Positions 7,022 through 62,252 of a stretch of 64,000 bases of DNA are shown here, piece by piece. The position numbers were made by a program, and so were the translations under genes. Numbering within the stretch: position 1 is the stretch's first letter; the number at the start of each line of letters is the position of its first letter. Source of the stretch: Candidatus Bathyarchaeota archaeon (GTDB taxonomy: Archaea; Thermoproteota; Bathyarchaeia; 40CM-2-53-6); assembly GCA_005881695.1 (NCBI GenBank), contig VBBT01000104.1, forward strand, positions 14,941 to 78,940, written 5' to 3'. A model generated the notes under the pieces. That model did no database searches. It saw only the letters and a list, made by a program, of their open reading frames with translations, and had not been told where the DNA came from.

Positions 7022-7482
7022 CTTTGCAGTTCTCTCTGGCCGACGACCCGGGCTGGATTACCAACTGCGACAGCGTTGCTGGGAATATCTTTTGTAACCA
7101 CGGAGCCGGACCCGATGAGGGCATTTTCGCCGATGGTTACTCCCGGATTTATCGTGCACCCCGCTCCTATGGACGCGAATTTTTTGACCCGTGTCTTGAG
7201 CAGGGACCAGTCACCGCGAGACCTAGGATACTTGTCGTTAGTAAAACTGACGTGAGGCCCAATGAAAACGCCGTCCTCGATCGTTACTCCGGTCGGGATG
7301 AAAACAAACGGTCTGACCTTACAATTATCGCCTATCGTGACGCCTTCTTCGATGTAGACGTAAGCGTCTATTTTCGTGTTCTTGCCGATCGTGCAGCCGT
7401 AAAGGTTTACCTGGTCGTAGACTCGGGAACCTTTCCCGATCCTAGATTTCTTGATAACAGAATATTTCGAGCCGCTCCTCAC
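7018..7482 (-). CDS. Hexapeptide-repeat (left-handed beta-helix) sugar N-acetyltransferase, WbpD/PglD-like
   Basis: Tandem hexapeptide repeats: IGKNTKIDAYVYIEEGVTIGDNCKVRPFVFIPTGVTIEDGVFIGPHVSF; 154 aa. Confidence 0.8.
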   Translation of the reverse strand: MRSGSKYSVIKKSRIGKGSRVYDQVNLYGCTIGKNTKIDAYVYIEEGVTIGDNCKVRPFVFIPTGVTIEDGVFIGPHVSFTNDKYPRSRGDWSLLKTRVKKFASIGAGCTINPGVTIGENALIGSGSVVTKDIPSNAVAVGNPARVVGQRELQR

Positions 7483-9627: not shown

Positions 9628-9955
9628 GATCGCCTGAGCCTGTTCAGTTCTCGCGATGGCTTCTCCGCTCGTATCTAACTCCGCCTTGCGGAGGGCTTGC
9701 AGACTCGCGAGTTTTAACCCTTCCTAAAGGGAACCACCGATATCAACCGTTGTAATGACAAATAAATCTTGAGATATCTTCTGCCCTCATAATAGTCGGA
9801 GACCTAAGATTGAATAAATACTTCGACGCGCAACAGAACCACCAGAAGAAATGAAGCCGCTTCGTCCTGCAGGGGTCTACCTACCACCAGTCATCCGCAA
9901 GAGTTCATCGAGCCAGCTGGAAACCATCATCATGAATCTGGAGGTCAACCTCTAG

Positions 9956-14233: not shown

Positions 14234-14354
14234 TGAGGCACCTATCTTTGGTTCGGGACTGTGTCGAGCGTGTAATAGGCTAAGTGGTCCTGAAGGTACG
14301 ATTATGAAGAAACTGGGATCAAAACCGGGATGAGTGAGACTGACGAGGAACTGG

Positions 14355-14789
14355 CTATATTCTTCGCGCTAGCTGTAGCACATTCAACCCAATCGCTTCA
14401 TCCTTAGCCTTTACCAGTTTCCCTGAGAGTTTCCATAGACCGATCTCTACCATGTTGGCTGCTGACCCTTCATCCAAATGACCGCCAATTACTGAAAAGT
14501 CCCTTCGGCCGAGGGTTACGTGAACATGAGGGAGGGGCCGGCGGTTCATGGTTGATATGTTGCCGGAGAGGTTTAGGATTTCCAGATCATCTTCGAATGT
14601 TTCGTACTTGTATTGTTTTGTCGTGAAGTCGTAGTGGCCGAGCTTGACCTTGCTCAGCGAGCCGATGCCCTCAAGTAGACTTGCGCTCAGCCTCTTCGCC
14701 GTTGCGAATCGTCGGAGGGATTGGAGAATGTCGTCGCCGGATTCGAGCCTCATGACATACTTGTCGCTTCCTAGTTGTGTGTAGATCAT
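14355..14789 (-). CDS. PPC-domain (DUF296) protein
   Basis: The ...LPHVHVTLGRRDFSVIGGHLDEG motif is typical of the DUF296/PPC fold; 144 aa. Confidence 0.55.
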   Translation of the reverse strand: MIYTQLGSDKYVMRLESGDDILQSLRRFATAKRLSASLLEGIGSLSKVKLGHYDFTTKQYKYETFEDDLEILNLSGNISTMNRRPLPHVHVTLGRRDFSVIGGHLDEGSAANMVEIGLWKLSGKLVKAKDEAIGLNVLQLARRI

Positions 14790-26160: not shown

Positions 26161-26988
26161 ATGGACTGGGGAATGAAAAACCGGCTTTCAAGAATGATCA
26201 AACCTGAAACCGGAAGAACGGTAATGCTTGCGGTGGACCATGGCTACTTCATGGGTCCCACCCACAAGCTGGAAGAGCCTCGGAAAACGATCGAGCCTCT
26301 TCTGGCATACTCTGATGCGATAATGTGCACGCGTGGGGTTCTCCGGACCTCTATTGACCCGAGATCCAACGTGCCTATTGTCCTTCGGGTTTCAGGTGGA
26401 GCTAGCATTATCGGGGATTCATTGACTAACGAGGCCATCACAACTTCTGTGCGCGATGCTGTTCGGCTTAACGTTGCAGCGATGGCTCTTTCGATCTTTA
26501 TTGGATCTGCTCACGAGCATCAGACCTTGACGAACCTTGGCAGGCTTGTGAATGAGGGCGAGGAGCATGGTATTCCGGTTCTCGCTGTTACGGCGGTGGG
26601 CAAGGAGTTGGAGAAACGAGACGCTCGTTACCTCGCTTTAGCTTGTAGAATCGCTGCGGAGCTGGGGGCGCATTTTGTCAAGACATACTATTGCGAGGAT
26701 TTTGGAAAAGTTGTCAAAGGCTGTCCAGTGCCTTTGGTTGTGGCCGGAGGACCCAAGCTGGCGACAGAACTGGACGCGTTTCAACTCGCCCACGACGCAA
26801 TTCAGGAAGGGGCTGTGGGAGTGGATATGGGCCGGAACATCTGGCAATCAGATCATCCCGTGCCAATGATCAGGGCCATTCGAGAGGTAGTGCACGGAGG
26901 CGCAACTGTAAGGGAAGCCCAGGAAGTATACAACCAGTCAAAGAATACGAAACAGGAAGTAATCGTAAGACCATCTGCTGTACGATAA
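26161..26988 (+). CDS. DhnA-type class I aldolase (archaeal FBP aldolase or ADH synthase family)
   Basis: LAVDHGYFMGP, the Schiff-base Lys region VKTYY and the VVAGGPK motif; 275 aa. Confidence 0.75.
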   Translation: MDWGMKNRLSRMIKPETGRTVMLAVDHGYFMGPTHKLEEPRKTIEPLLAYSDAIMCTRGVLRTSIDPRSNVPIVLRVSGGASIIGDSLTNEAITTSVRDAVRLNVAAMALSIFIGSAHEHQTLTNLGRLVNEGEEHGIPVLAVTAVGKELEKRDARYLALACRIAAELGAHFVKTYYCEDFGKVVKGCPVPLVVAGGPKLATELDAFQLAHDAIQEGAVGVDMGRNIWQSDHPVPMIRAIREVVHGGATVREAQEVYNQSKNTKQEVIVRPSAVR

Positions 26989-27716
26989 TCGTTTGGGGGA
27001 GATTATCGATTACTAGGAAGCTATACTGGGAAGAGCCGTATTCCAAGGATTTCGTCGGGAAGGTAGTTACGGTCGAAGGGCAAGCAGTTGTTCTGGACCA
27101 GACACTCTTCTACCCACGGGGTGGCGGTGTAGCTTGCGACACCGGGACCCTGAACGCGTCAAAGGTCCAAGAGACAACAAAAGCTGACGACAAGATACTC
27201 CACACGATGGAATCCCCTTCATCTTTGAAGGTTGGAGACAAAGTGACAGGACGGGTCGATTGGGAAAGAAGACATACTCTGATGAAGATGCATACTGCGG
27301 GCCACCTTCTCAGCTCCCTGTTCTATTCGAGGGCCAACTGCCGAATAACAGGGAACCAGATCGACGTGGACCGGTCTAGAATGGACTTTAACCTGGAATC
27401 GTTCGATCGGACTCAGATTGAGGGATACGTGACAGAAGCCAATGAACTGATCACAAAAGACGCACCAGTCAAGACCTACTTTCTGGAACGAGGGGAAGCC
27501 CTCAAGCTCCCCGATATGGTGAAGCTCGCAGAGGCTGCGCCACCTGCGGAAGCCCAGCTTAGAATTGTCGAGATCGAAGGCATAGACCGTCAAGCCGACG
27601 GAGGACTACACGTGTCCCATCTCAAAGAGATCGGACAAATACAGCTACTAAAGCTGGAGAACAAGGGAAAAACGAACAGAAGACTATACTACGATACACA
27701 AAACCCCGTCAAGTGA
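26985..27716 (+). CDS. alaX: AlaX-M-type alanyl-tRNA editing protein (AlaRS N-domain plus editing domain); no canonical start
   Basis: LYWEEPYSKDFVGKVVTVEGQAVVLDQTLFYPRGGGVACDTG (AlaRS-like N-domain) followed by HTAGHLLS...C...GGLHV (editing-site zinc motifs). The conserved N-terminus begins right after the aldolase TAA stop. The only candidate initiator is ATA overlapping that stop (ATAA) or a nearby ATT. The first ATG (27205) would delete the conserved N-domain. Confidence 0.6.
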   Translation: MIVWGRLSITRKLYWEEPYSKDFVGKVVTVEGQAVVLDQTLFYPRGGGVACDTGTLNASKVQETTKADDKILHTMESPSSLKVGDKVTGRVDWERRHTLMKMHTAGHLLSSLFYSRANCRITGNQIDVDRSRMDFNLESFDRTQIEGYVTEANELITKDAPVKTYFLERGEALKLPDMVKLAEAAPPAEAQLRIVEIEGIDRQADGGLHVSHLKEIGQIQLLKLENKGKTNRRLYYDTQNPVK

Positions 27717-29475: not shown

Positions 29476-30250
29476 GACCACAGTAGTCGCAGAATCGCCC
29501 CGGCATCTCATCCTTCAGATGGCTCTCAGAGATGTATCGGTCCTGTTCAGGACCCCATGGATCATCATAACCCGAGCTCTTTCCTTCATCATACAACTCT
29601 TTGTCTTTGCCTTCCTCATTAGTGGACTCATCCATATTCCAGGGCTCAATTTCTTCGAGTACTACGCTGTTGGGAGCGTAGTAGCGACGATCGCTTCCAT
29701 CTCGTTCGTCATCGGCTACGACATCTTCGAAGAAGCAGAAGAGGGAGTACTCGATTATCTGCTAACGCTTCCAATCGCAAGACGGCAGTTTATCGTTGGA
29801 CGAGCGCTTGGCGGGGCTATGAGAGCCATAATCTACACCATACCAATGTTTGTCATCGTCGCCTTTCTCTGGGGGTTCAATCAGCCGCTCTCGATCCTCA
29901 CAGCTCTCGTATCGCTCTTCCTCCTAGCCTTCGGTGTTACTGGCATGTCGATAACCGTGGCCGTGAGCGTGAAGAGCGCTAACAGATTTGACGTGGTTCT
30001 CGCTCTCCTCGAGCTCGCTGTGTCAAGGGGAAGCACGGCTCTCTACCCAATCGCTTTCATGCCGGTCTATGTCTCGTTGTTCGCGCCTTTCTCGCCGGTT
30101 TCGTTTGCCGCTGACACTGCACGCAATTCTCTTGTCGGGTTCACTCTGGACCTTCCCGCGATCGCGGGGCTAGTAGCGTTCGTCGTAATTTTCCTCGGGT
30201 TGGGCGCTGCGTTCTATTTCCGCCGTCTAGAAGGAGGAATCTACGGTTGA
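29438..30250 (+). CDS. ABC-2 type transporter permease
   Basis: Six hydrophobic segments downstream of the ATPase. The true start may be an internal Met near 29519. Confidence 0.6.
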   Translation: MSSSPTPANDSSKTTVVAESPRHLILQMALRDVSVLFRTPWIIITRALSFIIQLFVFAFLISGLIHIPGLNFFEYYAVGSVVATIASISFVIGYDIFEEAEEGVLDYLLTLPIARRQFIVGRALGGAMRAIIYTIPMFVIVAFLWGFNQPLSILTALVSLFLLAFGVTGMSITVAVSVKSANRFDVVLALLELAVSRGSTALYPIAFMPVYVSLFAPFSPVSFAADTARNSLVGFTLDLPAIAGLVAFVVIFLGLGAAFYFRRLEGGIYG

Positions 30251-31014
30251 GCAATACGCGACTCATCCCGCTGATCATCGAGCGAGACGTTCGGATCCTC
30301 TTCTCCGACGCGTTTCTTGTCGCGATAATGTTCGCAAACTTTGCGATCGACCTCTTTGTGACAGCCGCGACCTTCGGCCGGCTCGTTACCGGCCAGGGCG
30401 CGAACTACTTCCTCTTCATCGCGCCCGGTTCGAATCTCATAACGGCGATGGTTGCCGCTTTCCAGTCAGGCAGAGATGTGTGGCGCGAGAAGTACATCAA
30501 AGACCTGACCTCGTACCTTCTGACCCTTCCGGTGCAGAGGCCGGTGCTCGCCTTCTCAAGGGTTCTAGGCGGTGTTGTGAGGAGCGTGATCGCAACTTTT
30601 CCAGGGACCCTTGTCATATGCTACCTCTACGGGATTCTACTGACCCCGAAAATTTTCGTAGCATACTTGATAGTCGGCCTATTCTCATTGGGAATAGTCG
30701 GCCTCTCTATGGCTATTTCCGCCTTTTCTTCGAGCATAGAAATGTGGGTCACTGTCAGAAGCGCCATCCAGCTCTACCTATCCTTTCTCAGCGCCCTATT
30801 CTACCCAGTGAGCGTGTTTCCCACCTTTCTAGCACCGATAGTTTCATCAAACCCTATGACATGGGCTATTCAGGCATTCCGGCAACTGTCGCCAATTTCT
30901 TTCCCACAAGTCCCCGCTGGCGATTCCCTTGGGTCGATACTAATTCTTGCCGGACCCTCACTCACCTTTGCCTTACTCGGAACCATCTGCTACATCTGGT
31001 ACTCGAAACTCTAG
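30247..31014 (+). CDS. ABC-2 type transporter permease (second subunit)
   Basis: Hydrophobic 255-aa ORF with a 4-nt overlap onto the preceding permease. Confidence 0.6.
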   Translation: MSNTRLIPLIIERDVRILFSDAFLVAIMFANFAIDLFVTAATFGRLVTGQGANYFLFIAPGSNLITAMVAAFQSGRDVWREKYIKDLTSYLLTLPVQRPVLAFSRVLGGVVRSVIATFPGTLVICYLYGILLTPKIFVAYLIVGLFSLGIVGLSMAISAFSSSIEMWVTVRSAIQLYLSFLSALFYPVSVFPTFLAPIVSSNPMTWAIQAFRQLSPISFPQVPAGDSLGSILILAGPSLTFALLGTICYIWYSKL

Positions 31015-38967: not shown

Positions 38968-39372
38968 ATGGTCGTAATCGCGCTCGTTGCCGCATCTCTC
39001 GCAGCAGGCGGAGTGTTCGCAGTAGTACTCAGCCCTCCCCCGTCTCCTTGCTCGGGAGCGACAGGAGCGATTCGGTCCTTTACAATTATGGTAGATTTGA
39101 CAGGTTACAACGGGAGCCAATCTCACAACGGTTCTTGGCCTGTCGTTTCGGTTCAGCGTTGTGACAATGTGGTTTTCACAGTTATCAATAACGACACCCA
39201 ATCTCATGGGTTCGCAGTGACCTATTACTCCAACGCCGGTTTGGAGCTTGTAGGAGGTGCACGCCAGACGCTGAAGTTTCAAGCTACAAGGACTGGAGAG
39301 TTCCAGATATATTGCACGATCAAGTGCTCGGTTCACTACCTAATGCAAAATGGTCTTCTAAACGTAACCTAA
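38968..39372 (+). CDS. Membrane-anchored blue copper (amicyanin/plastocyanin-like) protein, paralog of 31081..31623
   Basis: INNDTQSHGFAV and YCTIKCSVHYLMQNGLLNV match the same His / Cys-x2-His-x2-Met pattern as the paralog. The start is proposed at ATG 38968, just before the TM helix. Confidence 0.6.
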   Translation: MVVIALVAASLAAGGVFAVVLSPPPSPCSGATGAIRSFTIMVDLTGYNGSQSHNGSWPVVSVQRCDNVVFTVINNDTQSHGFAVTYYSNAGLELVGGARQTLKFQATRTGEFQIYCTIKCSVHYLMQNGLLNVT

Positions 39373-39395
39373 GCATCCCTGGCGAACAAACAATC

Positions 39396-40916
39396 ATGCG
39401 ACTATCATACGCGATCGCGCCAATCCTGATCCTCATTTTCTTCTCCACACCAGCGTCCTACGCAACTCCCCTCACTCGTGCAGTTAGCCAGCCAGATATT
39501 GTTCAATCCAGTCCTCAATCCTACGTAACTTTCATGCAGAAACCTCTAGATTCGAGCCCCAGCCCATGGGTCCTTTATCCAACAGACACGGTCGTGTGGG
39601 TCGCAGGAATATCCTCAGGAACGCCGCCGACCTCTCAGATCCGGGAATACTTCATAGTGAATGGAACTTCGAAACCCGTAGCCAATCTCCCGAACGTAAT
39701 AGTCAGCTCCTTGGTTGCTGATTCTCTGGGCCGAGTTTGGTTCACCGACAATTCGACACTTGCATACTACGACAGCCAACGCCTGACCGTGAATAAGACG
39801 ATAACTTTTCCTAACCAAAACCTAGAGTACTTGGCGCTAGATCATCAGGAGAGAATATGGATGACAGTGTTGGGACCTAATGGCGCCAGCAACGTCGTCA
39901 TGTTCGATCCCACTAATAGTTTGAACCGGACCTATCTGGTTCCGACCACCAACGCGTTCATTCAAGGAATAACCGCAGCTCCAGACAATACAGTATGGTT
40001 CGCAGAAGCCGGGTCGATGAAGCTTGGTCATCTTGCCTGTGACAGCTGCGACATCACCGAGTTTCCTTCACCTTCGTCTCTCAATCTAGCAGCGCTTTCA
40101 CAGGTGGCGGTTGATAGATCAGGCAACATTTGGTTCACCGATCATGCGGGCGACAACCAATTTGGAGTGTTTGACTCACATGCCAATACTTGGAAGATTT
40201 TCCCTATCGGTTATTGTCCAGATGCTTGTGTTTCCGGCCTTCCCAACGCCATTTTTGTTGACGCATACAACAAGATCTGGTTCTCGGAACACATTGCTGG
40301 TAGAGTAGGACGCTATGACCCCTCTACTGGTGTCTTGACAGAATATGTTGTCTCTCTCACTCCCAACGCTTTCCCATTGATCTGGTGGGCAAGCCCTGGG
40401 CCCAACAATCTCGTATGGTTTGTTGCAAACGGACTCGGCGAGGTAGGCTACATCAACGCGAGCCTACCCCTTCCGCTGACCCTTACTGGACCTTCAGGGG
40501 AGGTTGCAATCCAAAAAGGAACCACATTGAACATTTCTGTCATCGTAGACTCTCAAGCCCTACAAACCCTGTCCTTCGGCGTTTCTCCGTTGACTCAAGA
40601 CCAAGAGTCTTCGAACTCTCCTGCCCAATTGTACGGGTCTGGGCCTTCAGACATCGGGCCGAACAATAATCCTCAGGCGGTCAACATCGGCATTTCTGCG
40701 GCCTGGAGTGCGATCTCTGGGGCCCGGTACGTAGCTCTCACCGCCACTGAGGGCAACGTCGCAGTAACCATTCATGTCAAAGTAGTAGTTGTTGAGAGTT
40801 CGGTGCCTTTTGTCGCTTTAGGTTTCTCATCCTCGATCGTTCTTGGAGGTTTCGCAATCTACTTGCGAAGGCCTAGGAAACCTAAGCTCCAGCCCTTGAA
40901 AAAAGTCAGAAGGTAG
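39396..40916 (+). CDS. Secreted beta-propeller protein with WF(T/S)(D/E) blade repeats and a C-terminal TM anchor with basic tail
   Basis: Signal peptide MRLSYAIAPILILIFFSTPASYA. At least six repeats: RVWFTDNS, RIWMTVLG, TVWFAEAG, NIWFTDHAG, KIWFSEHIAG, LVWFVANG, reminiscent of Vgb-lyase / NHL-like propeller blades. The C-terminus VPFVALGFSSSIVLGGFAIYLRRPRKPK resembles archaeosortase-type sorting signals. Confidence 0.5.
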   Translation: MRLSYAIAPILILIFFSTPASYATPLTRAVSQPDIVQSSPQSYVTFMQKPLDSSPSPWVLYPTDTVVWVAGISSGTPPTSQIREYFIVNGTSKPVANLPNVIVSSLVADSLGRVWFTDNSTLAYYDSQRLTVNKTITFPNQNLEYLALDHQERIWMTVLGPNGASNVVMFDPTNSLNRTYLVPTTNAFIQGITAAPDNTVWFAEAGSMKLGHLACDSCDITEFPSPSSLNLAALSQVAVDRSGNIWFTDHAGDNQFGVFDSHANTWKIFPIGYCPDACVSGLPNAIFVDAYNKIWFSEHIAGRVGRYDPSTGVLTEYVVSLTPNAFPLIWWASPGPNNLVWFVANGLGEVGYINASLPLPLTLTGPSGEVAIQKGTTLNISVIVDSQALQTLSFGVSPLTQDQESSNSPAQLYGSGPSDIGPNNNPQAVNIGISAAWSAISGARYVALTATEGNVAVTIHVKVVVVESSVPFVALGFSSSIVLGGFAIYLRRPRKPKLQPLKKVRR

Positions 40917-46520: not shown

Positions 46521-47363
46521 TTGACCTCCTACCTGACGCTGATACGACCCCCAAATACCATCATGATCGGGCTTGGAGTGGTCATTGGCGAAGCGATAGG
46601 TCTCGGCAAGCTCCCTGGACTTCGAGAGGCCGTTTTCGGGTTCCTGACCGCATCACTGATGATGGCCGGGACAATGGTGGCCAATGACGTTTACGACGTT
46701 GAAATTGACAGGGTCAACAGCCCGCAGCGACCTCTCCCTTCCGGAACGGTAAAGACCAGAGACGCCGTCGTATTGGCAGTAGCACTTTCAGTGGCTGCGA
46801 TAGGGTTCTCCGCGCTTCTCGGTCTATGGACGTTTCTAACTGCACTTCTCGCCCTTGCTCTGATGGTTTACTATAACACGAGGGGAAAGAAGACTGGCCT
46901 GATAGGAAATGCGGTTGTAAGCTTCAACGTCGCCCTGCCTTTCTTCTACGGAGGGCTCGCCGTGGGTAATTCGATCCGGCCCCTACTGTTCATCTTCTCC
47001 GTTGTCGCATTTCTCGCGAACTTTGCCCGAGAGGTTGCGAAGGGAATCGCTGACGTGAAAGGCGACAGCCTCCGTCAAGTCCGGACCCTGGCCGTGGTTA
47101 GGGGAACCAAGGTTGCAGCACTAGCATCTGCGGGACTGTTTATCGTCGCGGTTCTGCTGAGTTTCCTCCCGCCGTTTCTCGAGACAATCTCCTGGCTGTA
47201 TTTTCCTCCCGTGATAGTAGCCGACGTTGGCTTTCTGTATTCAGCGTACAGGTTGATGGGCAATCAGACGCCTGAGAATGTTCGAGCAGTCAAACGACAT
47301 GTTCTGCTATGGATGCTGTTAGGCCTTGTGGGTTTTCTTTTGGGCGGCGCCGCTCTCCTTTGA
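46521..47363 (+). CDS. UbiA-family prenyltransferase, probable (S)-2,3-di-O-geranylgeranylglyceryl phosphate synthase
   Basis: NDVYDVEIDRVNSPQRPLPSG, the Asp-rich UbiA motif, plus 8 TM helices. It neighbours the mevalonate-pathway genes. The TTG start at 46521 retains the conserved LIRPPN segment. Confidence 0.65.
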   Translation: MTSYLTLIRPPNTIMIGLGVVIGEAIGLGKLPGLREAVFGFLTASLMMAGTMVANDVYDVEIDRVNSPQRPLPSGTVKTRDAVVLAVALSVAAIGFSALLGLWTFLTALLALALMVYYNTRGKKTGLIGNAVVSFNVALPFFYGGLAVGNSIRPLLFIFSVVAFLANFAREVAKGIADVKGDSLRQVRTLAVVRGTKVAALASAGLFIVAVLLSFLPPFLETISWLYFPPVIVADVGFLYSAYRLMGNQTPENVRAVKRHVLLWMLLGLVGFLLGGAALL

Positions 47364-48638
47364 CCTGGACATATCGAGCAGAATTTCCCTAGCCCTATCC
47401 AGGCGGATCTTCCGCTCGACGACCATCTTGTCCGCCACCAGGTCGATTAGATCGCTTTGAGCTCCAGCCATTGCGGCAATATTTCTAGCGTGAAGAGACA
47501 TGTGTCCCTTCTGAATTCCCTCTGCTGCCAAGGCTCGTAGTGCGGCCATGTTCTGAGCCAAGCCCACTGCTGCCATGACCTCGCCAAGTTCGCGGGCCGT
47601 CTTCACGCCGAGGATCTTTAGGCATATCTTCGCCATGGGGTGGACGGCGGTGACTCCGCCGATGATTCCGACGGCGGCTGGGATCTCGATCGTCCCGACT
47701 AGGTTTCCGTTGGAGTCTTTCTTCCATGTTGTGAGGGGAGAGTAATGTCCAGTTCGTGCAGCGTAAGCATGGGCCCCTGCCTCTATTGCACGAGTGTCAT
47801 TCCCGGTCGCTAGGCAGACGGCGGTTACGCCGTTCATGACTCCCTTGTTATGGGTCGCACATCTGTACGGGTCAGCGGCGGCAAACGCGTACGCCTCCAC
47901 AATGCCATCGACGATGTCTTCGCCACCGAGGGCTTCTTTCGAAACTGTCGTTGTGGCCTTGGCAACCCTTCTATCTGCTAGATTTGAAATGATCCGCAGT
48001 CGGGCTTGACCCTTGGAAATCTTCTCAACCATAGGTGCTACAGCTTCGGCCATCGTGTTGACGACATTGGCCCCCATGGCGTCGCGGCAGTCAACCAGAA
48101 GCTCAACAATAACCAATGTTCCAACTTGGCTCGGTAGGATCCTGACGCGGAGATCTTTTGCCCCTCCGCCCATCGAGAGTAGTGTTGGGTCCTGCTGGTT
48201 GGCTTTTTCGATGATCTCTTTTCTTGCCGAGAGAATTTCCTTTTCAGCATCTTTCGGCGAGGGGCATTTCACTATCTGGATCTGGCTGATCATCACAGGC
48301 TCGGTGCTGGTGGCTGTGAAGCCGCCTGTTGGTCTTGCCATCTTGGCCGCGTTGCTTGCCGCTGCGACTACTGATGGCTCTTCTATGGCCATCGGCACTA
48401 AGTAGTCTCTACCGTTAATCAGAAAGTTGGTAGCGATTCCGAGAGGGATCGGGAACATGCTGATGACGTTCTCGATCATTCGTTGCGCAGTCGCACTCGG
48501 CATTGTTCCGTTGGCTAGGGTCTGAGCCTCCTCGGAAGTTAGACCTGCGAACTCTTTGACGATTCTGAGCCTCTCTTCCAAGGGAAGCTTGTAGAACGAA
48601 GCAATGGTTGAGCTTCTGTTTAGAACCGACGTTTCCAA
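47319..48638 (-). CDS. hmgA: Hydroxymethylglutaryl-CoA reductase (class I, archaeal type)
   Basis: DAMGANVVNTMAE, GTIEIPAAVGIIGG and other HMGR signatures; 439 aa. Confidence 0.9.
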   Translation of the reverse strand: METSVLNRSSTIASFYKLPLEERLRIVKEFAGLTSEEAQTLANGTMPSATAQRMIENVISMFPIPLGIATNFLINGRDYLVPMAIEEPSVVAAASNAAKMARPTGGFTATSTEPVMISQIQIVKCPSPKDAEKEILSARKEIIEKANQQDPTLLSMGGGAKDLRVRILPSQVGTLVIVELLVDCRDAMGANVVNTMAEAVAPMVEKISKGQARLRIISNLADRRVAKATTTVSKEALGGEDIVDGIVEAYAFAAADPYRCATHNKGVMNGVTAVCLATGNDTRAIEAGAHAYAARTGHYSPLTTWKKDSNGNLVGTIEIPAAVGIIGGVTAVHPMAKICLKILGVKTARELGEVMAAVGLAQNMAALRALAAEGIQKGHMSLHARNIAAMAGAQSDLIDLVADKMVVERKIRLDRAREILLDMSRSKESGAAQKKTHKA

Positions 48639-48640
48639 AT

Positions 48641-49174
48641 CTAGGCCTCTGGCAGACCTAGGTTTTCCTTTCTCAATTTGCGAAATGCGATCGGAAACCA
48701 GGGAGTGTATTTCTCTGGATTCTCGTCCACATCATTTTGGAGCTCGGTGAGGGTGATCCATTTCCAGTCGTCTACCTCTTCAGGATTCGGTTTCGGGTCT
48801 CTATCATATTGACCGACAAAGACATGATCGAACTCGTGTTCTGTCAAGCCGCTCTTCTGGTCGGTAGCCTTGTACACGAAGCTGAAGGTCTCCTTCAGCG
48901 GGGTATCAAAGCCCAACTCCTGCTTCAGCTTTCTATGGACTGCAGCCTCCAGTTTCTCACCCTTTGTTGGATGACTGCAACACGGGTTACTCCATAAGCT
49001 CTGAAAGTGGTGTTTTGCTTTCGACCTAAGTTGGAGAAGCGCCTCGTTCTTGGAATTGAAGATGAAGATGGAAAAGGCTCTGTGCAGTTTCCCGCCATCG
49101 CGATGAGCTGCTAGCTTTTCTTCGTATCCGATTGGATTGTCTTTCTCATCAACTAGGACAATGATTTCAGGCAT
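48641..49174 (-). CDS. idi: Isopentenyl-diphosphate delta-isomerase, type 1 (Nudix)
   Basis: HRAFSIFIFNSKNEALLQLRSKAKHHFQSLWSNPCCSHP, the Cys/Glu catalytic region, within a Nudix fold; 177 aa. Confidence 0.8.
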   Translation of the reverse strand: MPEIIVLVDEKDNPIGYEEKLAAHRDGGKLHRAFSIFIFNSKNEALLQLRSKAKHHFQSLWSNPCCSHPTKGEKLEAAVHRKLKQELGFDTPLKETFSFVYKATDQKSGLTEHEFDHVFVGQYDRDPKPNPEEVDDWKWITLTELQNDVDENPEKYTPWFPIAFRKLRKENLGLPEA

Positions 49175-49242: not shown

Positions 49243-50235
49243 TTAGTCGACTCCTCGCACGTCAAGGGACACGTTGTAAATCGTTCCTCCACGCGTTCGT
49301 AATTCCCTCGCAATCCTCGATCGAGCCTTTTTGTCCGCGCACAGCGCTATGATACATCCGCCGCCTCCGGCGCCCGTGAGTTTGGCTCCGAGAGCTCCTC
49401 CTTTCCTGGCCGCAGCCACAAGTCTATTTAGCATGGGTGTTGAAACGCCAATCTGACGGAGTAATTCGTGGTTTCTGTTCATCAAGGACCCCAGCTCGTT
49501 GTCGTCTTCGCTCTGTAGAGCCTTGACCACGGCGTTCGACAATGTATTGATCTCCTCTAGATGAGTTTGAAACCCTTCTGTTTGTTCCCGGGACCTTTTG
49601 ACTACCGACCCTACCAAAGCTTTTGTTGACCGGTGAATTCCCGAGTCACATACAAGAATCATTGGTGGTCGTTTGACGTTGACCGACTTGATCTTTGAGG
49701 GTTTTCTGAACTGAATGATTCCGCCATATGTGCAAGTTGCCTGGTCGACCCCCGAAGGGTGTCCGTGAAGATAGTTCTCTGGAATGAAAGCGAGCTTGAA
49801 AATTTCTCGTCGGTCGAGTCGCGTTCCTCTCGATTTGGCTACTGCGGAGATGGTTGCGACCGTAGTAGAGGCAGAGGAGCCGAGGCCTGCGCCGATAGGA
49901 ATCTGGCAATTGGCATCTACATGGACGCTTCGTTCTTCGGTTCCTAGGTGGTCGAGTGTAGCACTCGCTGCGAGGCGTAGTGGTTCTAGAAGCTCTTGAT
50001 TCTCGGCAGAGGACGATCGTTTGTCGGCGTCGCCGACTAGATGAAGCGGAATGTCAGCAGTTACTTCAATTCTGCCACTCTGAGATGGCCTTACGTCTAT
50101 CTTTGAGTAGAGATTGACAGCCATCGCGACAGCTGGTGCGCCGAGGACGACGAATTGTTCTCCTGACAATATGATTTTTCCAGGCGCTCTGGACGAGATG
50201 GTCGATAGAGAAGTTGATGGCGAGGACGAGCTCAC
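49243..50235 (-). CDS. mvk: Mevalonate kinase (GHMP kinase)
   Basis: APGKIILSGEQFVVLGAPAVA, GLGSSAS GHMP motif. The start is proposed at GTG 50235, overlapping the upstream TGA stop (GTGA). The longer annotated N-terminus of about 50 aa is unsupported. Confidence 0.8.
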   Translation of the reverse strand: MSSSSPSTSLSTISSRAPGKIILSGEQFVVLGAPAVAMAVNLYSKIDVRPSQSGRIEVTADIPLHLVGDADKRSSSAENQELLEPLRLAASATLDHLGTEERSVHVDANCQIPIGAGLGSSASTTVATISAVAKSRGTRLDRREIFKLAFIPENYLHGHPSGVDQATCTYGGIIQFRKPSKIKSVNVKRPPMILVCDSGIHRSTKALVGSVVKRSREQTEGFQTHLEEINTLSNAVVKALQSEDDNELGSLMNRNHELLRQIGVSTPMLNRLVAAARKGGALGAKLTGAGGGGCIIALCADKKARSRIARELRTRGGTIYNVSLDVRGVD

Positions 50236-51080
50236 TTCGTAAATGCGATCGCCGCGTAACCAACTACTGAACGCTTGTCCCCTGCCGTGTCTCCACTCGT
50301 CTGGTATGATAGCAACTTGGCCTGTTTCGCGCCAAGGATCTTGGACGCGTGTATGACAGCCGTGACGGGGCCGTATCCGCATGCTGACACGTGGTTTTCT
50401 TCGATCATGTCCTGGAATTTTTTCTCGTCCATTTCGAGAACCGCCTGGAGGGCTTCCATGTCCTTTTTCTTCGCCGCTTCGTGGGATTCGTAGTGGGTCC
50501 AGTCTGATGAGGCGATAAGCATCGCTCCTGTCCCAGTGGAGGCTTTGGCGATAGCGTTGCCTATTTCCATGCTCGTTTCAAGGTCTTGAAGCATCATGCA
50601 GATCGGCACGAACTGGAAACGTCTTGGATAGATGAATTGTAGGAAGGGAAGTTGGACTTCTATCGAGTGTTCTCTCTTGTGAGCTTCCTCTTCGACATCG
50701 ATTAAACCCGATAATCTCGTAATGGAGGAAGCTAGCAAGCTGTTGACAGGAACCTCACCGAGCGGAGTTGCCCATTGCCCCTCAGTCATTGTTGAGACGC
50801 CGCTTCCGTAGCCGGTATGGTTCGGCCCCAGGATTATCACGGACTTTCTCAAGCCTGAAGTGGCCAAGCGATAGTAGCTGTTTGCAGCGACGGGTCCAGA
50901 GTAATCGTAACCCGCGTGTGGAACAACGATCGCCACAAGCTGGTCGTCAGGTATGGCGGGAACGGATGGAATAGATCTTGGTCCGAGAGGATGCAGGAAA
51001 CAGTTGTGTATCTGGGTCCGAAGCGCGCCTTCAGTATCAGGGTAGAAGGTGCCTGCTTGTGCTGGAGGGCGTGTTTTCAC
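50232..51080 (-). CDS. Memo-like protein (AmmeMemoRadiSam system protein B family)
   Basis: AGTFYPDTEGALRTQI ... VVPHAGYDYSGPVAA ... ILGPNHTG. GTG start overlaps the rps2 stop (GTGA). Confidence 0.75.
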   Translation of the reverse strand: MKTRPPAQAGTFYPDTEGALRTQIHNCFLHPLGPRSIPSVPAIPDDQLVAIVVPHAGYDYSGPVAANSYYRLATSGLRKSVIILGPNHTGYGSGVSTMTEGQWATPLGEVPVNSLLASSITRLSGLIDVEEEAHKREHSIEVQLPFLQFIYPRRFQFVPICMMLQDLETSMEIGNAIAKASTGTGAMLIASSDWTHYESHEAAKKKDMEALQAVLEMDEKKFQDMIEENHVSACGYGPVTAVIHASKILGAKQAKLLSYQTSGDTAGDKRSVVGYAAIAFTK

Positions 51081-51999: not shown

Positions 52000-52410
52000 T
52001 TACCTGTACGATTTCTGTTTTCTCCGTCGTGCACTTGGCCCGCCGAACTTTTTCGGTTCGGTTACTCGTTGATCCCCAGCCAGCATTACCCTGTCGAAGG
52101 CGATGAAGTTCTTTCTCAGCTCGCTGCTCTTTGTCCACGAGGCAAGTGATCGCGCGATCGCAATTCTGGCCGCCTCAGCTTGGCCCATGAAACCTCCACC
52201 ATTAACGGATACGCGGATGTCCACTCCTTTGGCTCGTTCCCCAGCTATGATGAGCGGTTCTTGGATCTTCATCCGGACGACCTCGGGACTAACATAGTCG
52301 AGAGAATGATCGTTAAAGTAGATTCGACCTTTTCCAGGTTTCACGACAGCGCGGGCTATCGCGGTCTTTCGCTTACCCGTTTCGAGAACAGGTTTCTTCT
52401 TCTCACTCAG
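52000..52410 (-). CDS. rps9: 30S ribosomal protein S9 (uS9); apparent CTG start overlapping the rpl13 stop
   Basis: (M)[36 protein letters not shown]...[19 protein letters not shown]...RRKQKSYR. The only in-frame initiator-like codon between the rpl13 stop (52407..52409) and the conserved [11 protein letters not shown] is CTG at 52410..52408 (CTGA overlap). The ORF-track N-terminal extension lies inside rpl13. Confidence 0.8.
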
Positions 52411-52868
52411 GCGGGAATGCCTCCAATCTCTTCCGCTAGCTGAGCAACAGTGATGAAGGGAACTCTCAGCTTTGACGCGTTCGCATGAGACACAGTGTTG
52501 TAGGTTTTTCCTTCGTACTCCTTTGGAATCCCAATGTAGACCATGACTCGGTGGAAAGCCTCCTTTCCATGCGTCTTCTTCCAAGGGAGCATTCCTCTGA
52601 TAACTCTCCGGACGTAGTTGTCAGGCCTTCTAGGATGAGTTGGAGCCTTATCCTGGCTACCGAGCGTTCGCGTTTTCAGTTTTGTCTTCGCCCGCGCGAC
52701 AACTCGGGCCTTTGTCCCAGAGATGATCGCACGTTCAGCATTCAACACGACCATCTTCTTCCCCTCCAAGGCTTGCTTCGCAACGTAACTCGCCATTCTT
52801 CCCAAAATCAGATTAGATGCGTCAACAACTTCCTCTTCCGGCGAGAGGCTTGCAACCATTTTTTTCAA
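52407..52868 (-). CDS. rpl13: 50S ribosomal protein L13 (uL13)
   Basis: MKKMVASLSPEEEVVDASNLILGRMASYVAKQALEGKKMVVLNAE...; ATGA overlap with rpoD. Confidence 0.9.
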   Translation of the reverse strand: MKKMVASLSPEEEVVDASNLILGRMASYVAKQALEGKKMVVLNAERAIISGTKARVVARAKTKLKTRTLGSQDKAPTHPRRPDNYVRRVIRGMLPWKKTHGKEAFHRVMVYIGIPKEYEGKTYNTVSHANASKLRVPFITVAQLAEEIGGIPA

Positions 52869-56715: not shown

Positions 56716-57776
56716 GTGGTGGAGAAAAGTCGGTTGTCACAACAGGCTCCCTGGAATAAGTCACAGAAATTGCTCGTCAAGCTCGACGAGGAGACAGACC
56801 CGGCGTTAGGCTGTCCGCCAGAGAAGAGGACGATTGATCAGCACATCCGGTTCGGTCTGATCAACCTGGATAAGCCCTCAGGCCCATCAAGCCACGAAGT
56901 CGTCGCTTGGGTCAAACGTCTCCTTCGGTTGAACCACGCTGGCCACGGTGGAACTCTAGAGGTCCCCTTCGGGGCCGGAGTAATCCGATGGTCACCGGCG
57001 TTCTTCCGCTCGCCCTAGAAGACGCTACCAAGACGATCCAGGCATTCCTCCTCACCGGGAAGGAGTACGTCTGCCTAATGACAATGCACGGCGACGTCGA
57101 CCAGACCAAACTCCGCGGTGTACTGGAGGAATTTGTCGGCGACATATTCCAGAAACCCCCAGTGAGAGCCGCGGTCAAGAGGGAAGTCCGGAAAAGAACA
57201 ATCTACTCGATCGACGACGTAGAAATTGATGGCAGACAGGTTCTATTCCGCGTCGCCTGTCAGGCAGGAACCTACATCCGGAAACTAGTTTACGATGTCG
57301 GAGAAGTTCTCGAAGTAGGCGCTCATATGCGAGAACTCCGCAGAACGAGATCCGGATCCTTCACCGAAAGGGACGTACATTCACTCTACGATATACTCAA
57401 ACTCTCTCAGGCCTCTTCGGACGACAGGGAAGGGATGGTCCGGCAAATCATCAGACCGATGGAAGACGCGTTCGACTATGTTCCGCGAATCTACATTCGC
57501 GACTCTGCCGTTAGCTCAATATGCCACGGGGCAGATCTTGCTGTTCCTGGGATAGTCAAGCTAAGCGAGGGGATACGTCCCAAGACCGCGATCGCGCTTT
57601 TTACGCTCAAAGGAGAACTCGTCGCATTATCAAGAGCCCTTATCGGAACCGAACAGATGATGAAGGACGAGCGCGGGCTCGCTGCTAAGACGGTTAGAGT
57701 GATCATGCCGACTGACACCTATCCCAAGCTGTGGAAACCGAAGCACCGTCGTTCCGTGGTAACCCAGTTCAATTGA
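56716..57776 (+). CDS. cbf5: tRNA/rRNA pseudouridine synthase Cbf5 (H/ACA RNP catalytic subunit); interrupted by a 23-nt intron at 56961..56983
   Basis: Exon 1 (frame 1) ...LINLDKPSGPSSHEVVAWVKRLLRLNHAGHGGTL and exon 2 (frame 2) PMVTGVLPLALEDATKTIQAFLLTGKEYVCLMTMHGD... Removing ggtccccttcggggccggagtaa joins cta-ga|t-ccg, giving GHGGTL-D-PMVTG. That is the universal TruB/Cbf5 catalytic motif GTLDPxVTG, with the Asp codon split by the intron. The intron folds into a cCCC-UUC-GGGg hairpin. Confidence 0.8.
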
Positions 57777-57781: not shown

Positions 57782-57946
57782 TTGAGCACGAACAAGGTCA
57801 CGTTCGTCTGCAATTGTGGAGATGAGATTACGGTCGAGGTTAATCCTGATCAAGAAAACGAGGTTGTGTGTCTAAAGTGTGGCCAGCAATATCGGTTCTT
57901 TGGACAGAGTGTTCTGAGATGGGGCGGCAGTTCAGGTGAAGAATAA
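57782..57946 (+). CDS. Small zinc-ribbon protein
   Basis: (M)STNKVTFVCNCGDEITVEVNPDQENEVVCLKCGQQYRFF. A C-x-C...C-x2-C ribbon; TTG start just after the cbf5 stop. Confidence 0.4.
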   Translation: MSTNKVTFVCNCGDEITVEVNPDQENEVVCLKCGQQYRFFGQSVLRWGGSSGEE

Positions 57947-58777
57947 CACTGAGATTGCGACCAGTGTCCAAAGCGGGATGGCGACAGCCGCCCAGATCTT
58001 TCGATCCCACGTGTAGACCTTCTGTCCATCTAGTATGAAGAAGGGTATCATGTTGAACGCGCCAAGCCAGATATTGATCTGAACTCCCACTCGGAGGAAG
58101 TGGAAAGCGTTGCCGACTACCAAGTCCCCAAAGCCTAGAGCAGTGGAGCCCGCCAGAGCGATGGCGAAGATCGCGGCGGCTGCGATGTTGACCATGGGTC
58201 CGACGAGAGAGATTACTCCATTGGCCTTCCGATCGATTCCCTCGCCAAAATAACTCGAGCGTGAGGCGATGTATACGGCTCCGGGGGCGGCGAAGATGAA
58301 GGTGCCTTGTGAGATTACTGCGAACAAGAGGGCCATGATTGCGCCTACTGTCCAGAGTTTGAATTCTGCCCAACATCCATAACGTTGGGCGCTGAACTTG
58401 TGCGCCAACTCGTGCCCCAGGAATCCCGTTCCGATAACTAAGAGCGTTAACAGAAAGACCTCCAATACCTCTAGGGGTCTTAGGCCACTGAACACGTATC
58501 TCATCGAGAAACTGAGACCAAGGACGAGGAGAGCAGCGCTGAGCGCGTAGAGTTCTCGGCTTGATATTGAGGAGAGCTTTGGCGCTCTGATAAGTCTCAG
58601 GTTTGTCCCGGTTGAGCGCCGTTCGACTCGGATGATGGGCTTTGGGGCTCGTGCTTGCTGGATGTTGGGGCATTCGTGGTTTTCGGGGAGTCGGTGGTAG
58701 ACGCAGTGAACACGGCCGCAGTATCTGCATACGTAGGGGATGAATTCTTCCGCCCCGCAGACGGCGCAGCGTTCCAT
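57932..58777 (-). CDS. AN1-type zinc finger fused to a site-2-protease-like (M50 family) intramembrane metalloprotease
   Basis: N-terminal CAVCGAEEFIPYVCRYCGRVHCVYHRLPENHEC (AN1-type C6H2 pattern). The membrane domain has HELAHKF (HExxH) and ...AFNMIPFFILDGQKV (the LDG motif of M50/S2P). The overlapping 57840..58730 alternative-frame ORF is Arg-rich and judged spurious. Confidence 0.6.
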   Translation of the reverse strand: MERCAVCGAEEFIPYVCRYCGRVHCVYHRLPENHECPNIQQARAPKPIIRVERRSTGTNLRLIRAPKLSSISSRELYALSAALLVLGLSFSMRYVFSGLRPLEVLEVFLLTLLVIGTGFLGHELAHKFSAQRYGCWAEFKLWTVGAIMALLFAVISQGTFIFAAPGAVYIASRSSYFGEGIDRKANGVISLVGPMVNIAAAAIFAIALAGSTALGFGDLVVGNAFHFLRVGVQINIWLGAFNMIPFFILDGQKVYTWDRKIWAAVAIPLWTLVAISVLFFT

Positions 58778-59077
58778 GATTGTTCAGTGATTGTCTGCTT
58801 GCCCACTTAAAATCGTGCCTGCGAGGGGGATACTTCGTAGTAACGACCGTGTGTGTTGGTCGGTTACGCGAGGCTTAGAATCGTATCTCACGACTTGGCC
58901 GATTCAAGGGTGGCGTCCCCCGGGCGCGGACACTGCCATTCGCCCGTTAAGGGTTGACGGCTGGCCCGCACCCACCGCCACTCTAGTTCTTACTTCTCGA
59001 ACGGTCGAAGTTTCAGCAGCTGTTTTGGGTTTCTTTCCCAAAGGGGAAAATAGTTCCTCGTAAACGGGCTTAGGCTG

Positions 59078-60299: not shown

Positions 60300-60746
60300 A
60301 TGACCACCGCAAAGAGAAAGACAAGGAAGCTCAGAGGGTCTAGATGCCACGGGTGGGGACGCTCGGGCCAACACCGAGACTCCGGAATGCTCGGCGGTCA
60401 TGGTAATGCGGGCTGGAAACGCCACAAATGGTCCGCAGTCATACGTTACAACCTGGAGATGGGAAGCAGAGGATTCCACCCCGTTAGGCAGAAGATAACC
60501 AACGCGATCAACGTAGGAGACCTGGTCCTACAACTAGACCGGCTGATAGAAGAGGGCTCCGCGAAACAAGCCGGCAACATCGTCGAGGTTGACCTTGGAA
60601 AGGCCGGCTACCAGAAACTGCTGGGAAACGGCAGGATAAGCCAGCCGCTAAGAATAATTGTTGCGAAGACCTCCGAACGTGCCCAAGAGAAGATCGGAAA
60701 AGCAGGCGGAGAAATCGTTCTCCCAACAAAGAACAAACAGGACTGA
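60300..60746 (+). CDS. rpl15: 50S ribosomal protein L15 (uL15)
   Basis: MTTAKRKTRKLRGSRCHGWGRSGQHRDSGMLGGHGNAGWKRHKW...; 148 aa. Confidence 0.9.
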   Translation: MTTAKRKTRKLRGSRCHGWGRSGQHRDSGMLGGHGNAGWKRHKWSAVIRYNLEMGSRGFHPVRQKITNAINVGDLVLQLDRLIEEGSAKQAGNIVEVDLGKAGYQKLLGNGRISQPLRIIVAKTSERAQEKIGKAGGEIVLPTKNKQD

Positions 60747-60764
60747 TCACTAACGGTCAGGTTC

Positions 60765-62252
60765 ATAGAGCTATTCCAACCCCTGACCAGAATTCTCCCC
60801 GGAGTCAAATCGCCCCAGAGAGAAGTCGGCTTCACCGAGAAGCTGATCTGGACAGCGGTCACACTAGTTGTCTATCTGATAATGTCAGAGACTCCTATCT
60901 ACGGAATCACGCATAGCGGGGCGGGCATAAACGATCAGTTCGGCCCTCTACGAGTCATCTTCGCATCCAACCGCGGAACACTAGTCGAACTCGGAATTGG
61001 ACCAATAGTCACAGCCGGACTAATCCTCCAAGTGCTCTCCGGCTCCAAGATGATCAACGTCGACTTCACAAACCCAGCTGACAGAGCGCTGTTCACAGGC
61101 GCAAGCAAGGTACTCTCGGTGTTCATGACTATCTTCGAGGGAATAGCCTTCCTGATAGGAGGAGCGTACAACGTACAAAACTCAGCGGGCCAACTTATCA
61201 CGCCCAGTCTACAATCTCAATTCCTAATTCTCGTCCAGCTCGTAGTCGCAGGAGTAGTGATCATACTTCTGGACGAGATGCTTCAGAAAAACTGGGGCTT
61301 CGGCAGCGGAATCAGCCTCTTCATAGCCGCAGGAGTCTGCCTCTCCATAGTATGGAGTACACTCGGGCCAATATCACCGGTCGCAGATGGGAAATACTTC
61401 GGCGCGATCTTCGCCTTCGCCCAGTCGATCGGGCCAGTACTCTCAAACCCGGGAAGCTTCTCCGCCTGGCAAAGCGCGCTCTACAGAGGCGGAAGCGGGC
61501 TCCCCGACATGGTCGGACTATTCACAACCCTCGGCGTGTTCATCCTCATAATCTACCTGAACGGCCTACGAGTCGAGGTCCCGGTCTCATACGCCAGATA
61601 CCGAGGCTTCCGAGGACGCTTCCCAATCAAGTTCTTCTACGTATCCAACATACCCGTCATCTTCGCCGCCGCCCTATTCGGAAACATCTTTTTCATCGGA
61701 CAACTCCTCTTCCAAAGATACAATCCCACGTGCTCCAGCACAGGCCTGAACTTCTGGCTCAGCCTATTCCCCGGCTGCTTCGTACCCACCAGCTCAACCA
61801 ACGCCCAACTCGTCCCCAGCAAAGGACTGGCATACTACACATTCGCCCCAAGATCCATCACCGTCGTCCTTCAAGACCCCATCAGAGCCGCAGTATACAT
61901 GGGAATCTTCGTACTCGCCTGCGTCTTCTTCGCCGTCACATGGGTGGAGGTAGGCGGAATGGATTCGAAGACAGTCGCAAAACAACTGATCGACTCTGGA
62001 ATGCAAGTAGAGGGATTCAGACGTTCTGGCACTACGATAAGACAAATCCTCGACCGCTACATACCGACCGTGACCATCATCGGAGGAATTGTCATAGGAA
62101 CCATAGCGGCAGGCGCTGACTTCCTCGGCGCCTTCGGCACCGGAACAGGGATTCTACTAACAGTAGGCATCATCGAACAATACTACGAGATACTAGTCAA
62201 GGAAAGAATCACGGAAATATACCCTGGAGTCAAGGGATTCCTCGGACAGTGA
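60765..62252 (+). CDS. secY: Preprotein translocase subunit SecY; conserved N-terminus lacks a canonical start codon
   Basis: The ORF track starts at ATG 60882 (MSETPIYGI). The same frame is open back to the rpl15 TGA stop and encodes FIELFQPLTRILPGVKSPQREVGFTEKLIWTAVTLVVYLIM. Compare M. jannaschii SecY ...LIPILEKIPEVELPVKEITFKEKLKWTGIVLVLYFIM (TM1). No in-frame ATG, GTG or TTG is present. Candidate initiators are ATA 60765 and CTG 60783. Coordinates around here may be off by one in my reading. Confidence 0.85.
   Translation: MELFQPLTRILPGVKSPQREVGFTEKLIWTAVTLVVYLIMSETPIYGITHSGAGINDQFGPLRVIFASNRGTLVELGIGPIVTAGLILQVLSGSKMINVDFTNPADRALFTGASKVLSVFMTIFEGIAFLIGGAYNVQNSAGQLITPSLQSQFLILVQLVVAGVVIILLDEMLQKNWGFGSGISLFIAAGVCLSIVWSTLGPISPVADGKYFGAIFAFAQSIGPVLSNPGSFSAWQSALYRGGSGLPDMVGLFTTLGVFILIIYLNGLRVEVPVSYARYRGFRGRFPIKFFYVSNIPVIFAAALFGNIFFIGQLLFQRYNPTCSSTGLNFWLSLFPGCFVPTSSTNAQLVPSKGLAYYTFAPRSITVVLQDPIRAAVYMGIFVLACVFFAVTWVEVGGMDSKTVAKQLIDSGMQVEGFRRSGTTIRQILDRYIPTVTIIGGIVIGTIAAGADFLGAFGTGTGILLTVGIIEQYYEILVKERITEIYPGVKGFLGQ

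Follow-up and report, generated by a model that had tools for sequence, protein, structure and literature searches.

Putative near-cognate start codons in conserved operon-internal genes of a Bathyarchaeia lineage, including a clade-wide ACG in secY

Archaeal start codons have been reviewed as AUG, GUG, and UUG only (PMC7531240), and start selection in archaea involves the eukaryote-type factors aIF1, aIF1A, and aIF2 (PMC6237735). In ribosome profiling of Haloferax, near-cognate codons made up ∼30% of the putative alternative initiation sites and were excluded from the analysis (PMC7261190), and in Escherichia coli initiation is measurable at ACG and other noncanonical codons, with Met at the N terminus (bioRxiv 10.1101/063800). 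Coupling between neighboring genes in Haloferax is down by ∼60% at a distance of 13 nucleotides (nt) and is lost at 22 nt (PMC10666635). We analyzed a 64,000-nt stretch of DNA from a Candidatus Bathyarchaeota archaeon (contig VBBT01000104.1, positions 14,941 to 78,940), called the window here and numbered from its first letter. Direct reading of its frames bears out an earlier note that four conserved genes, rps9, secY, alaX, and a GT2 glycosyltransferase gene, have no ATG, GTG, or TTG (the canonical starts throughout this work) at the N terminus fixed by homology. We consider it probable that rps9, secY, and alaX use near-cognate initiation at the ancestral position, at CUG, ACG, and AUU, respectively, with the weak codon offset by a strong ribosome binding site or by translational coupling, and that GT2 also starts noncanonically. 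Searches of the literature available turned up nothing specific on starts at ACG or CTG in archaea, Bathyarchaeota included.

The described systems resemble these junctions in part. CUG and ACG, which are leading near-cognates in eukaryotes, recur here; unlike in eukaryotes, conserved housekeeping genes would have no start other than these codons, which would not serve upstream open reading frames (ORFs) or alternative isoforms, and SD (Shine-Dalgarno) pairing or operon coupling rather than scanning would position them. The alaX ATT and the rps9 CTG are comparable to the rare bacterial starts (AUU of infC; CUG, AUC, and AUA in translation table 11), being single-mismatch and SD led, but no infC-type autoregulatory logic is evident here, and ACG is a codon that table 11 does not allow as a start. 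C-to-U editing in plant organelles likewise involves a genomic ACG at a conserved ATG start position, but the alaX ATT is inexplicable by editing. Termination-reinitiation at −4/−1 overlaps (Huber et al. 2019, PMC6728339; PMC10666635) is matched by the 4-nt NTGA overlap of rpl13 and rps9, although the gene pairs studied have canonical starts, and the distances of alaX (+20) and GT2 (+11) are those of weak or lost coupling in Haloferax.

The window has ∼52% G+C and 0 ambiguous bases. It was compared with a set of ∼170 related DNA stretches (loci, numbered L…), and all sequences are short-read metagenome assemblies. A search with the SecY translation yielded 79 loci from species-representative genomes; the closest matches, at 96 to 99% amino acid identity, were grassland-soil Bathyarchaeota metagenome-assembled genomes (VBBD, VBBR, VBBQ, MNGO, and others), and further relatives formed a graded series of identity down to ∼60%. 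The junctions of the four genes were read directly, and stop-to-stop frames were listed with their first canonical codon. Pairing with the anti-SD sequence was computed over the 22 nt upstream of homologous start positions, against a background with a median of −4.0 kcal/mol and a 5% quantile of −9.1 kcal/mol.

The strongest case is secY, whose features are as follows.

60753 to 60755, plus strand: ACG, the proposed secY start, from alignment with the starts of relatives
60753 to 62252, plus strand: secY coding sequence, 499 codons plus stop, with Pfam Plug_translocon and SecY domains
60744 to 60749, plus strand: rpl15 stop TGA (60744 to 60746) within an SD-like TGATCA, from its match to the 16S 3′ end

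The secY frame opens at the rpl15 TGA, and its first canonical codon, ATG 60882, is codon 44. The ACG lies 6 nt after the rpl15 stop and aligns with the ATG, TTG, or GTG of MVRFIELF in 47 of the 55 relatives evaluated (∼60% identity), where the window reads TVRFIELF. The same ACG is found in 22/22 other window-clade genomes, whose SecY proteins are 76 to 99% identical in amino acids, and TGATC or TGATT is kept ahead of it in most members of the clade. Among 144 four-fold degenerate columns with a conserved amino acid in the 22 secY sequences, the only invariant codon is this ACG. The comparison shows that the predicted ACG start is itself under nucleotide-level selection. Codons 2 to 43 behave differently: nucleotides vary in 40 of the 42 columns, with the amino acid kept in 25 of those 40. 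Variable nucleotides under an often unchanged amino acid show that these codons are under protein-level selection and hence that the stretch is translated. Predicted anti-SD pairing is −9.5 kcal/mol for ACG 60753, compared with −5.8 for ATA 60765 and −2.2 for CTG 60783, the two codons that the earlier note had offered as starts and with which the relatives' start does not align. Initiation at ACG 60753 is thus the most likely reading of the sequence, and the predicted extended N terminus is (M/T)VRFIELFQPLTR, ahead of Met44. Public gene calls on at least eight independent contigs (L167 to L170 among them) give instead a SecY of 456 amino acids (aa) from ATG 60882, which is 43 residues short and leaves a false gap of 135 nt after rpl15 (60747 to 60881, plus strand).

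Two further observations concern the secY contigs. L028 (VBBS01000026.1), a close relative at 96% identity, has a premature stop at codon 143 of secY, probably from an assembly error or frameshift. Contigs with Bathyarchaeia-type secY (L011, L016, L026, L030, L073, and L074) have also been deposited under bacterial or other names (Dormiibacterota, “bacterium,” Acidiferrales, Methylomirabilota, Thorarchaeota, and Acidoferrum), suggesting that contigs were misplaced among genomes in those assemblies.

The second essential gene, rps9, overlaps its upstream neighbor.

52408 to 52410, minus strand: CTG, the proposed rps9 start, forming CTGA with the rpl13 stop, from alignment of relatives
52000 to 52410, minus strand: rps9 coding sequence, 136 codons plus stop, Pfam Ribosomal_S9
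52407 to 52409, minus strand: rpl13 stop TGA, closing the ORF at 52407 to 52868, Pfam Ribosomal_L13
52420 to 52424, minus strand: GGAGG SD motif, 9 nt upstream of the CTG, read directly

The Ribosomal_S9 match (E = 7e−37) covers residues 12 to 136 and the full profile. Only two canonical codons are in frame, TTG 52584, which is 58 codons upstream and inside rpl13, and GTG 52344, which is downstream of the conserved S9 N-terminal motif. The aligned start codon is GTG in seven relatives (L009, L010, L012, L013, L015, L016, and L060), TTG in L004, and CTG in four sequences (the window, L002, L007, and L028), a small sample on which to judge conservation of the CTG. The 4-nt overlap is kept across relatives as GTGA, TTGA, or CTGA, and because the C of CTG is the synonymous third base of the last Ala codon of rpl13, rpl13 places no constraint on it. 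The predicted anti-SD duplex at CTG 52410 reaches −9.3 kcal/mol, in about the top 5% of the background. The earlier placement of the rps9 start at CTG 52410, overlapping the rpl13 TGA, is confirmed at the level of sequence comparison as the predicted initiation site. At the same junction L018 has a variant, with TTA at the start position and GTG two codons upstream.

The third gene, alaX, whose homologs are named AlaX or misacylated tRNA(Ala) deacylase in databases, follows an aldolase gene.

27009 to 27011, plus strand: ATT, the proposed alaX start, from homolog N termini and the nearest relatives
27009 to 27716, plus strand: alaX coding sequence, 235 codons plus stop, with Pfam tRNA-synt_2c (C-terminal part) and tRNA_SAD
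26995 to 27001, plus strand: GGGGGAG SD motif, 7 nt upstream of the ATT; the leader also precedes ATG in L164 and L166
26986 to 26988, plus strand: stop TAA of the aldolase (DeoC family; ORF 26161 to 26988, Pfam DeoC), 20 nt upstream of the ATT

The comparison for alaX drew on the DNA of seven loci and the N termini of 60 protein homologs. From the aldolase stop to ATG 27207 the frame contains no canonical codon. Most of the 60 listed homologs begin with MTRKLYWEEPYS or LTRK at the position of the ATT, and the nearest relatives, L164 and L166, read gggggagattatcg ATG acg there. The ATT is present in six sequences (the window, L160 to L163, and L165), again a small sample for conservation. Its predicted anti-SD duplex of −11.4 kcal/mol is in about the top 1% of the background, compared with −0.7 for ATA 26985, the start suggested previously; the relatives align with the ATT instead, and ATA 26985 is CTA in L161, L164, and L166. 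TTA 27003 and TCG 27006 were rejected as starts, since in L164 and L166 an identical leader is followed by ATG. Initiation at ATT 27009 is the most likely reading, with (M/I)TRKLYWEEPYSK as the predicted extended N terminus. Public AlaX gene calls are variably extended or truncated.

The fourth gene encodes the GT2 glycosyltransferase, whose homologs carry the database name dolichol-phosphate mannosyltransferase.

7004 to 7006, minus strand: TCG, homologous to the TTG or ATG start of relatives and a candidate start, from alignment
7001 to 7024, minus strand: nearly invariant 24-nt block aggtaagggactcgcttTCGaaa with SD-like AGGTAAGG, from 25 unique sequences
7020 to 7018, minus strand: stop TAA of the upstream acetyltransferase gene, inside the 24-nt block
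6988 to 6993, minus strand: ATA ATT, the Ile-Ile of the IIPIY strand and alternative start candidates, read directly
6278 to 7006, minus strand: GT2 coding sequence from the homologous start position, Pfam Glycos_transf_2

Glycos_transf_2 matches residues 6 to 169 (profile positions 3 to 165), and the frame has no canonical codon from the TAA at 7060 to 7058 down to TTG 6832. Eighty metagenome loci were compared, of which the window clade makes up ∼44, representing 25 to 27 unique sequences. In relatives at 73 to 77% identity the sequence is TTG/ATG aag acg ata gca ata att (MKTIAIIPVY), and the homologous position holds TCG in all ∼44 window-clade loci. The ATA of the Ile-Ile is invariant in the window clade. 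Within the block aggtaagggactcgctt TCG aaa, 0 to 2 of the 25 unique sequences differ at each position, with one position excepted, while third-position variation is ordinary in the flanks and resumes right after TCG AAA. The block looks like an initiation region centered on TCG. Anti-SD pairing is −6.5 kcal/mol at TCG 7006 and −3.3 at GTA 7021, where a start had been proposed and with which the start of the relatives does not align. GT2 would start noncanonically somewhere within 7006 to 6988; TCG is the homologous position, ATA 6991 and ATT 6988 are alternatives, and AGG 7018 is also a candidate. From TCG, the predicted extended N terminus is (M/S)KTLAIIPIYSEALSIGTVLER, and close homologs have been called as proteins of 223 to 229 aa, 13 to 19 residues short. 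A programmed frameshift between the acetyltransferase and GT2 genes was rejected on inspection: the overlap contains no slippery sequence, and reading in the +1 frame quickly runs into a stop.

Start-codon turnover can be seen in progress in the clades from which the ancestral start is gone: some lineages have a new canonical codon 1 to 8 codons away in GT2 (L109 to L111 and L116) and alaX (L162, L163, and L165), by changes such as gcg to GTG, ctt to TTG, and tta to TTG. Both genes look as if an ancestral ATG or TTG had been lost, the gene had remained functional, and some lineages had regained a canonical codon.

The strings CTGA, ATAA, and GTAA, which the earlier note had read as initiators overlapping upstream stops, are indeed present at 52410 to 52407, 26985 to 26988, and 7021 to 7018. 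The overlap itself holds for rps9 but not for alaX (ATAA) or GT2 (GTAA), and in predicted anti-SD pairing each alternative site named there is weaker than the homologous one in its gene.

A wider survey of Bathyarchaeia start codons, in which curated gene starts were projected onto each locus, took in 25 gene families with a total of ∼750 conserved start positions. In the neighborhood of secY, 18 gene starts across the 79 loci gave 455 conserved start positions, distributed as follows.

ATG: 235 of 455
TTG: 117 of 455
GTG: 36 of 455
Canonical codon within a few codons of the position: 20 of 455
ACG: 25 of 455
CTG: 16 of 455
Other codon: 6 of 455, which are alignment artifacts or single uncertain cases, one of them concealing a CTG start of secY in L042

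Seven further families around GT2 added one more CTG case (g2218 of L134 to L136), and an eighth, g8648, contains a possible, less certain ACG case. CTG and ACG are the only nonstandard codons seen in more than one family; TCG (GT2) and ATT (alaX) are each limited to one. Starts at CTG or ACG would have arisen separately roughly 10 times: ACG in secY of the window clade and in rpl15 of L036, L038, L064, and L065 (with a stop 1 to 2 codons upstream), and CTG in rps9, adk (10 to 12 genomes, with a stop 1 codon upstream), Memo, cbf5, g62849, g2218, and secY of L042. Because many CTG and ACG sites have a stop 0 to 2 codons upstream, a canonical start farther upstream is excluded for them. Median anti-SD pairing is −9.0 kcal/mol for CTG/ACG starts versus −6.4 for canonical starts (Mann-Whitney P = 3e−14), and it is stronger for CTG/ACG in seven of the eight families that hold both classes. 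The stop of the upstream gene lies within 20 nt of 44/46 CTG/ACG starts versus 343/597 (57%) canonical starts, and most CTG/ACG starts are no more than 6 nt after it. A window-wide tblastn census of all ORFs against the loci was dropped because near-identical DNA matches in every frame.

These patterns are consistent with a mechanism in which several operon-internal genes of the lineage would have lost an ATG, GTG, or TTG start by a single base change. Translation would still begin at the ancestral position, now on a near-cognate codon, with which the ordinary initiator tRNA would pair with one mismatch, inserting Met. An unusually strong SD/anti-SD interaction, a supply of ribosomes from the upstream gene, or the two together would offset the weak codon. 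The rps9 CTG, secY ACG, and alaX ATT differ from AUG in a single base and the GT2 TCG in two. The window contains no tRNA genes or Rfam families, hence no special initiator tRNA to examine. Distances from the upstream stop are −4 nt for rps9, +6 for secY, +11 for GT2, and +20 for alaX, and reinitiation is plausible for rps9 and secY. The termination-reinitiation coupling proposed in the earlier note fits insofar as all four genes lie within 20 nt of a codirectional stop, as do nearly all of the CTG/ACG sites of the survey, but only rps9 overlaps one. Initiation on these codons, the insertion of Met, and the respective shares of SD-led initiation and reinitiation are what we infer.

Several points weigh against this interpretation. 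The alaX start is 20 nt from the aldolase stop, and because reinitiation in Haloferax is nearly gone at ∼22 nt, coupling is doubtful there. The GT2 TCG mismatches AUG at two bases. Taken by itself, the fact that it is invariant lacks significance, as 5 of 68 four-fold columns are invariant. We know of no case of a TCG start codon. The alternatives at the GT2 Ile-Ile are predicted to pair at −0.3 (ATA 6991) and −1.5 kcal/mol (ATT 6988), without an SD, and are at least 24 nt from the upstream stop. Counted as independent events, the enrichment of upstream stops becomes 8/9 against the 57% baseline (binomial P ∼ 0.05), which is weak, and per-site counts in general overstate independence, as the genomes are related by descent. 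The anti-SD sequence GAUCACCUCCU was taken from general archaeal knowledge and not from the 16S rRNA of this organism, and the survey against relatives covered the parts of the window outside 11 to 50 kb.

A reading less exotic than mRNA editing, and largely the same as near-cognate initiation with compensation, is that the class may have an intrinsically relaxed, eukaryote-like start hierarchy, with CUG and ACG used routinely. For GT2 alone, a start at a near-cognate other than TCG, namely, AGG 7018 (in a 1-nt overlap, TAAGG), GTA 7021, or ATA 6991/ATT 6988, is a serious if somewhat less favored possibility. AGG, ATA, and ATT are each a single base from AUG, and sublineages have regained a canonical codon beside the Ile-Ile, GTG at −1 in L109 to L111 and TTG at −2 in L116, which implies that very short N termini are viable. 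Against such a start, third positions vary as in coding sequence only once TCG AAA is passed, the nucleotides of the block before that point hardly change, and the Ile codons have the poor context described above. AGG is, moreover, a very poor initiator in known systems.

Restoration of the starts by C-to-U editing of the mRNA (ACG to AUG, CUG to UUG, and UCG to UUG) is very unlikely, although the ACG, CTG, and TCG seen repeatedly at conserved starts make up three of the only four codons convertible to ATG, GTG, or TTG by one such change and no other model offered accounts for the invariant GT2 TCG. The alaX ATT could not be repaired in this way, and the adjacent TCG is present also in relatives with ATG. 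A codon that stays weak would call for the stronger SD seen at these sites, and an edited one would not need it. CUG and ACG are among the best eukaryotic near-cognates, and we know of no description of C-to-U mRNA editing in archaea.

That the proteins are simply shorter, starting from the next canonical codon (SecY at ATG 60882, GT2 at TTG 6832, S9 at GTG 52344, and AlaX at ATG 27207), is what the public SecY and GT2 calls assume, and it is equally improbable. The stretches skipped are conserved as protein and change mostly synonymously. They hold the first residues of the S9 domain, the GT2 IIPIY strand (from profile position 3 on), the LYWEEPY of AlaX, and the part of SecY that we take, from SecY/Sec61 structures, to be transmembrane helix 1. 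The downstream codons have no SD (−2.3 and −1.9 kcal/mol).

Sequencing or assembly error, or decay into pseudogenes, might be suspected from the short-read origin of all the sequences and from the broken secY of L028, but this is hardly credible given that identical noncanonical codons turn up in assemblies made independently, from various samples and in various projects (22 genomes for secY, 4 sequences for rps9, ∼44 loci for GT2, and 6 sequences for alaX), the frames are intact, the N-terminal regions are under protein-level constraint, and secY and rps9 are essential. Comparison of the same junctions, which had been suggested as a check, gave a divided answer in that distant relatives are canonical at the same positions but whole clades share the noncanonical codon, and a state common to whole clades must have been inherited and is no sequencing error. 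Readthrough of the rpl15 TGA to yield SecY as an L15 fusion, or reinitiation without a start codon, draws on the TGA being in frame two codons before the ACG in the window and most close relatives, but it is exceedingly unlikely, as L016 has the rpl15 stop in another frame, L013 has it doubled (TGA and then TAG), and a TAG or TAA adjoins the ACG in L013, L017, and L019 and is one codon from it in L018, while the intervening residues vary (SL, SI, SQ, FQ, or absent) and conservation begins at the ACG. The readthrough envisaged in the earlier note is therefore contradicted by the diversity of frame and stop in relatives, while its views that the missing starts are not annotation noise and that near-cognate initiators explain them best have held up; the missing starts are not indels either.

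Apart from the four cases, window genes that could be compared with relatives or Pfam have a canonical codon at the conserved position. Other ORFs with a late first canonical codon (3541 to 4755, 4677 to 6464, 13076 to 14368, 30115 to 31011, 39192 to 40913, 47322 to 48731, 49246 to 50577, and 8509 to 9723) were rejected as further cases because, by Pfam and relatives, a canonical start lies ahead of the domain; for ORF 4677 to 6464 it is ATG 6275. The junction upstream of rpl13 is also canonical, although the overlap is not the ATGA reported before.

52865 to 52868, minus strand: rpoD/rpl13 junction TTGA, with the TTG start of rpl13 at 52868

An in-frame ATG (52859) follows the TTG of rpl13, but it is the TTG that has the SD (−9.5 kcal/mol).

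Two other features of the window were observed. The long ORFs 57840 to 58874 and 57932 to 58783 (minus strand) overlap nearly completely on the same strand in different frames; the 344-codon ORF at 57843 to 58874 was set aside as an apparently spurious alternative frame of the real gene at 57935 to 58777, which has a conserved ATG and, alone of the pair, Pfam domains (zf-AN1 and Peptidase_M50). The cbf5 gene (56734 to 57776, plus strand) is split between two frames by a 23-nt insert, ggtccccttcggggccggagtaa, at 56961 to 56983. Its removal restores GHGGTL-DPMVTGVLP and an intact ORF of ∼340 codons. Inserts of 19 to 23 nt occupy the same place in ∼40 Bathyarchaeia relatives, with compensatory changes in the hairpin stem, and the insert looks like the small intron, removed by the tRNA-splicing endonuclease, that is known from the cbf5 mRNA of crenarchaea.

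The findings point to near-cognate initiation, a known phenomenon, here in what would be a selected, clade-wide ACG start in essential genes. Gene finders that accept only ATG, GTG, and TTG miss such starts, and protein catalogs, alignments, and structure predictions for thousands of metagenome-derived Bathyarchaeia genomes are affected. The paired strengthening of the SD offers a testable rule for when a weak codon is tolerated. If the interpretation is true, the eukaryote-type initiation apparatus of these archaea would accept eukaryotic near-cognates, as suggested by ACG in secY and rpl15 and by the repeated use of CUG.

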